Source: Escherichia coli (GTDB lineage Bacteria; Pseudomonadota; Gammaproteobacteria; Enterobacterales; Enterobacteriaceae). Taken from it: a DNA stretch of 64,000 bases. Positions 7,056-8,450 of the stretch are shown here, piece after piece. The DNA is taken from the NCBI RefSeq assembly GCF_045037415.1, contig NZ_CP173438.1. One strand, 5' to 3'. The notes under the pieces were generated by a model. The model worked only from the letters and a program-made list of their open reading frames with translations. It did not search any database and was not told the origin of the DNA. Numbering within the stretch: the stretch's first letter is position 1; the number at the start of each line of letters is the position of its first letter. The position numbers and the translations under genes were made by a program.

Positions 7056-8450
7056 TCAGAAGAAGTATTTAAAGCGAACGCGTGCGCCGTAACGGTCATC
7101 ACTATCGTCGCCGTGTATCTTATCGCCGTCGCTATCCAGAATGGAGTAATACGTGCCGAGGTAAATATTAAAGTTCTCCATATCCATCACATTAGCGAAC
7201 TGATAAGACGCATGAATGGTGTGAATGTTGTATGTTCCTTCATCATCAATCCAGCAATCGTTATCACAAACCACGCCACTAAATTCATCAATCTTATTAT
7301 GTGCGTAGATATAACCCAGCTCGAAACGTTTCCACAGCGCGTTAATCCCAGCGGTGAAATCTTTCTCATTATTAGCATCTAAATAGGCGGTATTAAGATT
7401 AACCACGATGCCATTTTCCGGATCGGTTTTCAGGCCATTCCAGGTCATGCTCATGCCATAACCGGTACGATCGGACTGATCGACAAAATTACCCTTGCTA
7501 TCGGTATAACCATAAGCATTATTTACCACGTTCGCTTCCATCGCTGCGGAAACGGTGAATTCTTCCGTCGGCGACCAGGCAATTACCGGACGCAGATAAG
7601 CAACATTTTTCTGCTGTTCCATATCGCGTCCATGATAATTACCGTCGTTATATAAAGATGTTCCGTCTTCCAGTAACGTGTTTAATTCAAAATACCAGTT
7701 ATCGAGTTGTTTGCTGACGAGGAAATTACCGCCAGCGTTAGAACGCCCGCGGCCCTCTTTCATCATATAGATATAACCGCTGCCATCGTCATAAAGATCG
7801 TTCGCAGTATTACCGGAATGTTCAACAAAGGTATCCTGATTCAGCGGGAACATATCGTAGGCTTCAAAACGGCCTACTTTGACCTTCCAGTCGTTTTCTT
7901 TGCCAAAGAAGAAAACCGCATCATCGATATTTACTGAACCGTGCATATCCCCCAGCGGTTGTGCGGAGAACCCAGCGAAATAGCCATTATCCAGTTTTCG
8001 CATACCATCAAAACCTAACAGAATACGACCATTGAGATTCCACTGTTCATTAGTGGGATCGCTATTCACATCAGCGTTGGTCATTGCCAGCAGGCCATGA
8101 TTACTTTCCGCATCCATATTAAATTCTACGTCACCGTAGATTTTTAAATCGCCATACCCTGAAAGCAGGAGATTAGGCGGGGTGGCGTTTTTCTTCTCTG
8201 ACTCCGTCGTTGATTGACCGTTTACCGGCGTGTTGCCCTGTGCGGTTTTAATTTCGCGGATCTCGGCGGCTTGTTGTGTCTGAAGCTGTTTAACCTGCCC
8301 CTCTGCTTTTGCTGCCCGCATTTCTGCCGCTTCCAGGCGTTCTTCCAGCAATGCCATGCGTTGTTCCAGCGTTAAATGCTGTGTTTTTGCCATACCGGTA
8401 CTACATGCCAATAATAAACCGATGGCTAAAGATAATGTCGATTTTTTCAT
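7056..8450 (-). CDS. Outer-membrane beta-barrel porin with signal peptide and N-terminal coiled-coil extension (ScrY/LamB-like sugar porin or related family)
   Basis: 464 aa; N-terminal MKKSTLSLAIGLLLACSTGMA signal, heptad-like EQRMALLEERLEAAEMRAAKAEGQVKQLQ segment, alternating beta-strand-like body, C-terminal ...RFKYFF aromatic end; agggaa RBS. Confidence 0.7.
   Translation of the reverse strand: MKKSTLSLAIGLLLACSTGMAKTQHLTLEQRMALLEERLEAAEMRAAKAEGQVKQLQTQQAAEIREIKTAQGNTPVNGQSTTESEKKNATPPNLLLSGYGDLKIYGDVEFNMDAESNHGLLAMTNADVNSDPTNEQWNLNGRILLGFDGMRKLDNGYFAGFSAQPLGDMHGSVNIDDAVFFFGKENDWKVKVGRFEAYDMFPLNQDTFVEHSGNTANDLYDDGSGYIYMMKEGRGRSNAGGNFLVSKQLDNWYFELNTLLEDGTSLYNDGNYHGRDMEQQKNVAYLRPVIAWSPTEEFTVSAAMEANVVNNAYGYTDSKGNFVDQSDRTGYGMSMTWNGLKTDPENGIVVNLNTAYLDANNEKDFTAGINALWKRFELGYIYAHNKIDEFSGVVCDNDCWIDDEGTYNIHTIHASYQFANVMDMENFNIYLGTYYSILDSDGDKIHGDDSDDRYGARVRFKYFF

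Follow-up and report, generated by a model that had tools for sequence, protein, structure and literature searches.

RafY, the porin of pRSD2-type raf plasmids, is presented in the title of Andersen 1998 (listed in PMC4827864) as a general diffusion pore that is not carbohydrate-specific. Other members of its family are on record. In Klebsiella pneumoniae, an OmpK35/36 mutant gains nutritional fitness from de-repression of the porin GlyP alone (bioRxiv 10.64898/2026.03.29.715108), lactulose induces a Salmonella homologue (PMC13304739), and Escherichia coli O157:H7, which is without rafRABD, has a homologue annotated as rafY2 (PMC4809568). Here we analyse a porin gene of this family that lies next to rhaM in a 64,000-nucleotide stretch of E. 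coli DNA (NCBI RefSeq assembly GCF_045037415.1, contig NZ_CP173438.1), hereafter the window. In our view its product is likely to be a chromosomal paralogue of RafY that acts as a general diffusion porin for oligosaccharides, and the gene is unlikely to have been imported recently.

The gene already bears an annotation, and its product is a member of a described family; its novelty is low for that reason. RefSeq names the identical gene "carbohydrate porin" (WP_000749934.1), and public contigs that encode the identical protein number at least 1,000. We take rafY2 to be the O157:H7 orthologue of the window porin, because this orthologue, which is 97% identical to it, is the porin copy examined in an O157:H7 genome. 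What the present analysis adds, with modest practical value, is a three-state polymorphism of the locus, a candidate promoter that may depend on CRP, and evidence that the porin anchors a variable interval and is conserved there.

Family and architecture of the porin

On profile and sequence comparison, the porin belongs to the RafY glycoporin family (PF16966 / TCDB 1.B.15). The Pfam profile Porin_8 (PF16966, "Porin-like glycoporin RafY") matches residues 104-464 along its whole length (model positions 1-372 of 372) with an E-value of 9.7e-155, and it also matches every one of the 50 aligned homologues, which are 25-85% identical to the query and served as input for AlphaFold2 (AF2). A megablast match (87% DNA identity) led to plasmid p52148_NDM_5, where a LacI-type regulator, an alpha-galactosidase, a major facilitator superfamily (MFS) permease and a GH32 hydrolase precede a 464-residue porin, the order rafR-A-B-D-Y. 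This protein is called RafY by UniRef and stands in here for the pRSD2 protein; the window porin is 79% identical to it over 450 aligned residues. No raf genes flank the porin in E. coli, and no dedicated regulator is found there (window strain and O157:H7); raf linkage is typical of the RafY family and is not needed for membership.

The first-pass annotation of the window had proposed a comparison with the LamB/ScrY and OprB families. Neither barrel profile matched the porin in the Pfam search (LamB, PF02264, even at E<=10; OprB, PF04966), and Porin_8 took their place; the OmpF/OmpC profile Porin_1 (PF00267) was likewise without a match. An NCBIfam scan gave no model for the porin, only meaningless coiled-coil matches with E-values of 0.05-0.1, and a sequence search of the PDB returned no significant match, so that by this route no solved structure of the RafY family came to light. 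The same annotation had called the substrate unknown. That stands for the chromosomal copy and falls for the family, given 79% identity to the characterised RafY.

In the AF2 model (predicted local distance difference test (pLDDT) 80.7, predicted template modelling score (pTM) 0.71), the polypeptide divides into a signal peptide, a long helix, a disordered linker and a barrel (Table 1). Read by eye, the N-terminus has a basic start and a hydrophobic core followed by the conserved motif TG(M/F)A↓K, and the region is helical in the model; signal peptidase I would be expected to cut after residue 21. E. coli alleles also carry 'LLAC' with Cys16 within the signal peptide (codons 13-16, 8403-8414), a relaxed lipobox pattern. 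Cys16 is specific to E. coli, other genera having 'LLVAN' at this place, and it occurs in none of the Citrobacter, Kluyvera and Klebsiella orthologues. A lipoprotein reading was set aside on the grounds that Cys16 is absent from orthologues of other genera and that the site for signal peptidase I, further downstream, is conserved; lipidation of Cys16 to give a lipid-anchored porin is an unlikely and more remote variant.

The helix that follows shows the hallmarks of a coiled coil. In each of 19 homologues that bear the extension, positions 28, 32, 35, 39, 42, 46, 49, 53 and 56 are hydrophobic, with 4-3-4-3 spacing, and Glu 29/36/43/50 and Arg 31/38/45 are invariant, which yields the repeat hExRhxx. 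Sugarporin_N (PF11471), the profile of the ScrY-type periplasmic extension, matches residues 27-52 of the window porin with an E-value of 0.08, below significance. It also matches aligned homologues that have the same heptad motif (8 of the 50 at E<=1e-3, 20 at E<=0.1), and because of these matches we consider the segment probably an extension of the ScrY type. Many distant RafY-family members of 350-390 residues are without it, which makes the extension an accessory module.

For the barrel, AF2 gives 16 beta strands between residues 100 and 463, short of the 18 that define LamB/ScrY. The top fold matches of the model are solved porins, with a Foldseek E-value of about 1e-9 for OmpF/OmpC. Conservation within the family is highest in the loop joining strands 5 and 6 (consensus GRFEAYDMFPLxQDTFVExSGxTANDLYxDGxGYIYMMKEGRGRS, with D206, Y228 and R236 invariant), and by analogy with the architecture of general porins this loop would correspond to an L3-like constriction loop. 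The features that the first-pass annotation had read from the letters thus hold up well: the 464-residue frame convergent with rhaM is in the open reading frame (ORF) list, the N-terminus has the conserved make-up of a signal peptide, the coiled coil of some 45 residues reappears as the helix with its heptad, and the beta-barrel was returned by structure prediction. The probable likeness of the protein to ScrY is confined to the N-terminal extension, the barrel being of the predicted 16-strand, Porin_8 kind.

This split bears on the view that the protein is a specific glycoporin of the LamB/ScrY kind, with a saturable in-channel site for alpha-galactosides such as raffinose and melibiose. A ScrY-type extension would suit such a channel, as would the setting of the Klebsiella and Enterobacter orthologues, whose neighbours are genes for a GH36 alpha-galactosidase, a LacY-type permease and a regulator of the LacI type, and RafY complements sugar uptake according to PMC4809568, which cites Ulmke 1997. 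The missing LamB-family match speaks against it, as does the occurrence of family members in unrelated sugar operons. In Buttiauxella, for example, the family member (locus L011, 7001-8395) ends an operon of an ATP-binding cassette (ABC) transporter, GH13, GH130 and DUF1861. We consider a specific channel improbable; porins of the RafY family seem instead to serve different glycan pathways as a portable module of the outer membrane.

The porin and the frv operon in E. coli

As the first-pass annotation stated, K-12 has the order rhaM-frvA-frvB-frvX-frvR-yiiG-fdhD and no porin. From this it had concluded that the porin occupies the frv position, and the wider comparison refutes that claim. Both are carried by O157:H7 and by E. 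coli B (NEBExpress), in the order rhaM-porin-frvABXR-yiiG-fdhD, and the FrvA, FrvB and FrvX accession numbers are the same in E. coli B and K-12. The window strain, like CFT073, has rhaM-porin-yiiG remnant-fdhD. The CFT073 porin gene is 21 bp shorter (1,374 vs 1,395 bp) and is still annotated as an intact coding sequence.

We assigned the state of the locus in 5,426 complete E. coli genomes by queries that span the junctions. The K-12-like state without the porin was found in 2,789 genomes (51%), porin and frv together in 1,378, and the porin without frv in 1,166. In 2,556 genomes (47%) a match spans at least 80% of the porin gene.

Loss of frv is separate from the porin, a deletion with its own junction. 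In BLAST comparisons, window positions 6700-8871 align to 9001-11210 of the O157 locus (L002) and positions 8871-9219 to 16002-16350, and what is missing is 11211-16001 of that locus, a stretch that begins 19 bp ahead of the frvA start and runs into the 3' end of yiiG. The yiiG remnant, also inside the rhaM-fdhD interval and absent from the first-pass annotation, differs from its K-12 and O157 counterparts by three deletions: the clip of its 3' end by the 4.8-kb event, about 125 bp internally, and about 470 bp of the 5' end together with the promoter. Its decay looks stepwise because some frv-deleted genomes have a longer yiiG.

Where O157, B and B2 strains have a 1.78-kb porin segment, K-12-type genomes carry 167 bases in the rhaM-frvA spacer (L003, 2917-3083 in K-12). 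This spacer was considered as a decayed porin remnant and rejected, its similarity score to the porin being 23-24 against a shuffle mean of 22.5, and the polymorphism is a replacement rather than a simple deletion scar. IS1 copies lie in or beside the porin gene in several E. coli genomes, and one gene is annotated in two pieces.

Ancestry of the locus

Outside E. coli, the porin adjoins rhaM in convergent orientation in three Citrobacter genomes and one Klebsiella genome. The order in Klebsiella sp. B345 is rafR-like gene, GH36 alpha-galactosidase, LacY-type permease, porin, rhaM. Enterobacter sp. ENT03 has fdhD, frvR-X-B-A, a divergent porin and rafR-rafA-rafB, which shows that the adjacency of frv and porin also exists beyond E. 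coli. In Pseudocitrobacter the porin again lies in the fdhD-rhaM interval, where a GntR regulator, a component of the phosphotransferase system (PTS; EIIC) and a GH4 enzyme stand between it and rhaM.

Between the window strain and O157, the porin has a non-synonymous divergence (dN) of 0.012 and a synonymous divergence (dS) of 0.23 (dN/dS 0.054), and dS is of the same order in its neighbours (rhaM 0.25, fdhD 0.19, rhaA 0.17). Against Citrobacter, dN/dS is 0.036. By these measures the porin is under strong purifying selection, and its divergence has kept pace with that of the core genes around it. The low G+C content (GC) of the gene, 0.41-0.47 (about 45%) vs about 0.55 in the rha genes and flanks, recurs elsewhere, with 52% vs 59% in Citrobacter and 50% vs 57-59% in Klebsiella, and is thus a property of the gene and not a sign of recent import.

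The first-pass annotation had read the AT-rich upstream region as consistent with horizontal acquisition. The region itself is there, with a GC of 0.31-0.38 over 8350-8950. The reading built on it, an acquired insert that took the place of the frv operon, can also point to the GC of 45% against 55% in the flanks, to the absence of the porin from K-12 and to a close paralogue that travels on plasmids. It is contradicted at each step: 1,378 genomes, O157:H7 and E. coli B included, hold porin and frv together; frv was lost by a separate deletion; the gene is convergent next to rhaM in Citrobacter and Klebsiella and shares the interval in Pseudocitrobacter; and its dS equals that of the flanks, while low GC is common to the orthologues. 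We therefore give acquisition next to no credence.

The same values weigh on the idea of a silent or decaying relic, left behind after loss of adjacent raf catabolic genes. Such a relic would go with the lack of linked raf genes and of a dedicated regulator in E. coli, with the absence of the porin from about half of the genomes, with the IS1 copies that interrupt or flank it in some of them, and with the decay of its neighbour yiiG. Divergence is substantial, however (dS 0.23 within E. coli), and a dN/dS that stays at 0.03-0.06 across it is hard to reconcile with decay. So are the 2,556 genomes that retain a match to 80% or more of the gene and the conservation of ribosome-binding and promoter-like blocks across genera. 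We judge a relic very unlikely.

From synteny and divergence we conclude instead that the porin is ancestral at the rhaM site and vertically inherited. Judged by gene order, it is no island but a conserved anchor gene of the rhaM-fdhD sugar-utilisation interval, which is itself variable in the Enterobacteriaceae. On this reading, K-12-like lineages lost the porin, and elsewhere in E. coli it persists as an orphan that lacks the raf-type catabolic genes found beside it in other genera.

Upstream region and candidate promoter

We aligned the 260 bp before the start codon from five genera. Four islands are conserved: TGTTA-N6-TCACG (8612-8627), TTTAC(T/A) (8588-8593), TAnTAT 17 bp further on (8565-8570), and the ribosome-binding region, around which the block TCAAGGAA/TCAGGGAA is conserved in all five. 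In the window, the second and third islands read TTTACT and TACTAT and are candidates for the -35 and -10 elements. Our hypothesis, drawn from the alignment, is that transcription would start near 8558 and that the first island may be a CRP-like site centred near -61.5, a class I position. A second CRP-like match, with 2 mismatches, lies at 8759-8774 in what was formerly the frvA-proximal part of the divergent region.

Downstream, the porin and rhaM converge across a 40-bp gap. The stable hairpin in this gap is probably a terminator shared by the two genes. An Rfam search of 7000-9400 matched no RNA family.

Other features of the window

Away from the porin locus, Rfam places two naRNA4 elements, of the repetitive extragenic palindromic/bacterial interspersed mosaic element (REP/BIME) type, in the rhaA-rhaD intergenic region (5658-5728 and 5750-5820, minus strand) and another at 39763-39834. 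A selenocysteine insertion sequence (SECIS) element (SECIS_3, 84 bits) at 11055-11113 on the plus strand lies across the gap between the two fdoG ORFs (10473..11060 and 11109..13523), and its presence there identifies the break as a selenocysteine UGA codon and not a frameshift. Further Rfam matches are CsrC (42088-42341), Spot 42 (43370-43488), ES222 (35160-35267) and STnc370 (33202-33270). On the minus strand, 52570-57587 is taken up by a complete rRNA operon whose spacer contains a tRNA.

Table 1 Features of the porin locus, in window coordinates. A dot marks features given without a strand.
Feature	Position	Strand	Details and evidence
RafY-family porin coding sequence	7056..8450	-	464 aa + stop, ATG start; six-frame ORF list of the window, Pfam, RefSeq annotation of the identical locus
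Signal peptide, residues 1-21 (MKKSTLSLAIGLLLACSTGMA↓K)	8388..8450	-	Alignment of 50 homologues; conserved TG(M/F)A↓K site
Periplasmic coiled-coil helix, residues 28-71	8238..8369	-	Heptad hExRhxx; AF2, block pLDDT 74-85
Disordered low-complexity linker, residues 72-97	8160..8237	-	pLDDT <50; length and sequence variable among homologues
16-strand beta-barrel domain, residues 98-464	7059..8159	-	C-terminal ...RFKYFF
Long loop, strands 5-6, residues 195-240	7731..7868	-	AF2: no regular secondary structure
Shine-Dalgarno-like AGGGAA	8459..8464	-	8 nt before the ATG
Candidate promoter	8565..8627	-	Conserved islands in five-genus upstream alignment
AT-rich intergenic region, retained from the control region between divergent porin and frvA	8451..8870	.	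Collinear with O157 L002 10752-11210; GC 0.31-0.38
4.8-kb deletion junction	8871	.	frvA-frvB-frvX-frvR and last ~19 nt of yiiG gone
yiiG (DUF3829) remnant pseudogene	8804..9358	-	BLAST against O157 and K-12; RefSeq pseudogene, 'missing N-terminus'
Hairpin between convergent rhaM and porin	7022..7048	.	Fold -27.3 kcal/mol, z -6.64, 0/200 shuffles as stable
rhaM	6701..7015	+	Neighbour of the porin in E. coli, Citrobacter and Klebsiella

Discussion

The literature on RafY relatives makes a wide, oligosaccharide-permeable diffusion channel the most likely function. After removal of a signal peptide of about 21 residues, the protein is predicted to form a 16-stranded barrel in the outer membrane, probably as a trimer by analogy with its closest structural relatives. 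The N-terminal residues, some 45 of them, would then form a periplasmic helix, and in a trimer three such helices could assemble into a three-stranded coiled coil below the pore. If the channel is wide and water-filled, as RafY suggests, di- to oligosaccharides at low concentration (raffinose, stachyose, maltodextrins) would cross the outer membrane through it. The porin would thus be an alternative large porin that supplements the major porins, rather than a channel that binds sugar tightly. It probably has a weak promoter of its own, and with the CRP-like site its expression may respond to carbon limitation.

A more far-reaching proposal, which we offer tentatively and think doubtful as it stands, is that this orphan RafY paralogue is a CRP-activated, large-channel backup porin whose presence or absence alters strain traits. 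It parallels the report on GlyP in K. pneumoniae. In carbapenem-resistant Klebsiella a RafY-family porin offsets the loss of major porins, which makes the E. coli copy a reasonable candidate for a like role. If true, presence or absence of the porin would measurably alter how a strain scavenges gut oligosaccharides, how permeable it is to bulky antibiotics on loss of OmpF/OmpC, and how susceptible it is to phages or colicins. In any case, the B and K-12 lineages differ by an outer-membrane protein, and the difference is an under-studied one: K-12 is without the gene, and E. coli B, O157:H7 and extraintestinal pathogenic E. coli (ExPEC) have it.

Several points weigh against these readings. Beyond the name rafY2, our literature search found no experiment on the chromosomal porin. 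The function is carried over by analogy from a 79%-identical paralogue, the differences from which are concentrated in the N-terminal extension (dN 0.39 vs 0.08 in the barrel), and with no linked raf catabolic genes on the E. coli chromosome the candidate substrate comes from RafY. Applied to the window sequence by itself, a hydrophobic-moment test of the helix did not reach significance (z 1.05) because the helix core is rich in Ala, and heptad conservation across the family carries the coiled-coil argument in its place. As for the promoter, a search of the window for the CRP consensus returned the upstream site with 2 mismatches, at chance level (21 matches vs 26 expected), and we retained it solely through its conservation across genera. 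The candidate -35/-10 pair scores only 8/12 and was not listed in a promoter and terminator scan of 6900-9500, the counts of which were no better than those of shuffles. The AT-rich upstream region could also mean that the gene is silenced under laboratory conditions.

Set beside the 18-strand porins ScrY and LamB, the window porin probably shares with ScrY the type of its N-terminal extension; the barrels differ, being without a sequence match and having 16 predicted strands in the window porin vs 18. RafY is reportedly able to replace both LamB and ScrY functionally. The long loop between strands 5 and 6 of the window porin resembles L3 of the trimeric 16-strand porins (OprP, Omp-Pst1, OmpU/OmpT, Omp32, PorB, OmpF/OmpC, VhChiP and DcaP), whereas its barrel is larger than theirs, at about 365 residues, with longer loops. 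DcaP of Acinetobacter also has a periplasmic coiled coil at its N-terminus.

GlyP of K. pneumoniae, which is under the LacI-type repressor GlyR, belongs to the RafY family as well, and in cells deprived of their major porins it acts as an alternative that gives better uptake of nutrients (bioRxiv 10.64898/2026.03.29.715108). It differs in setting: GlyP closes an operon in which a regulator, a permease and a hydrolase accompany the porin, whereas the E. coli porin stands alone, with no adjacent repressor. Unlike the plasmid gene rafY, the window copy is chromosomal, unlinked to rafRABD and convergent with rhaM, its GC is 45% vs 40%, and its extension and linker have diverged far more (dN 0.39) than its barrel (0.08). 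The window porin and RafY nonetheless agree in length (464 residues), in 79% of aligned positions, in the order signal peptide, coiled coil, linker and barrel, in a Cys-x3-Cys loop and in the C-terminal RFKYFF.

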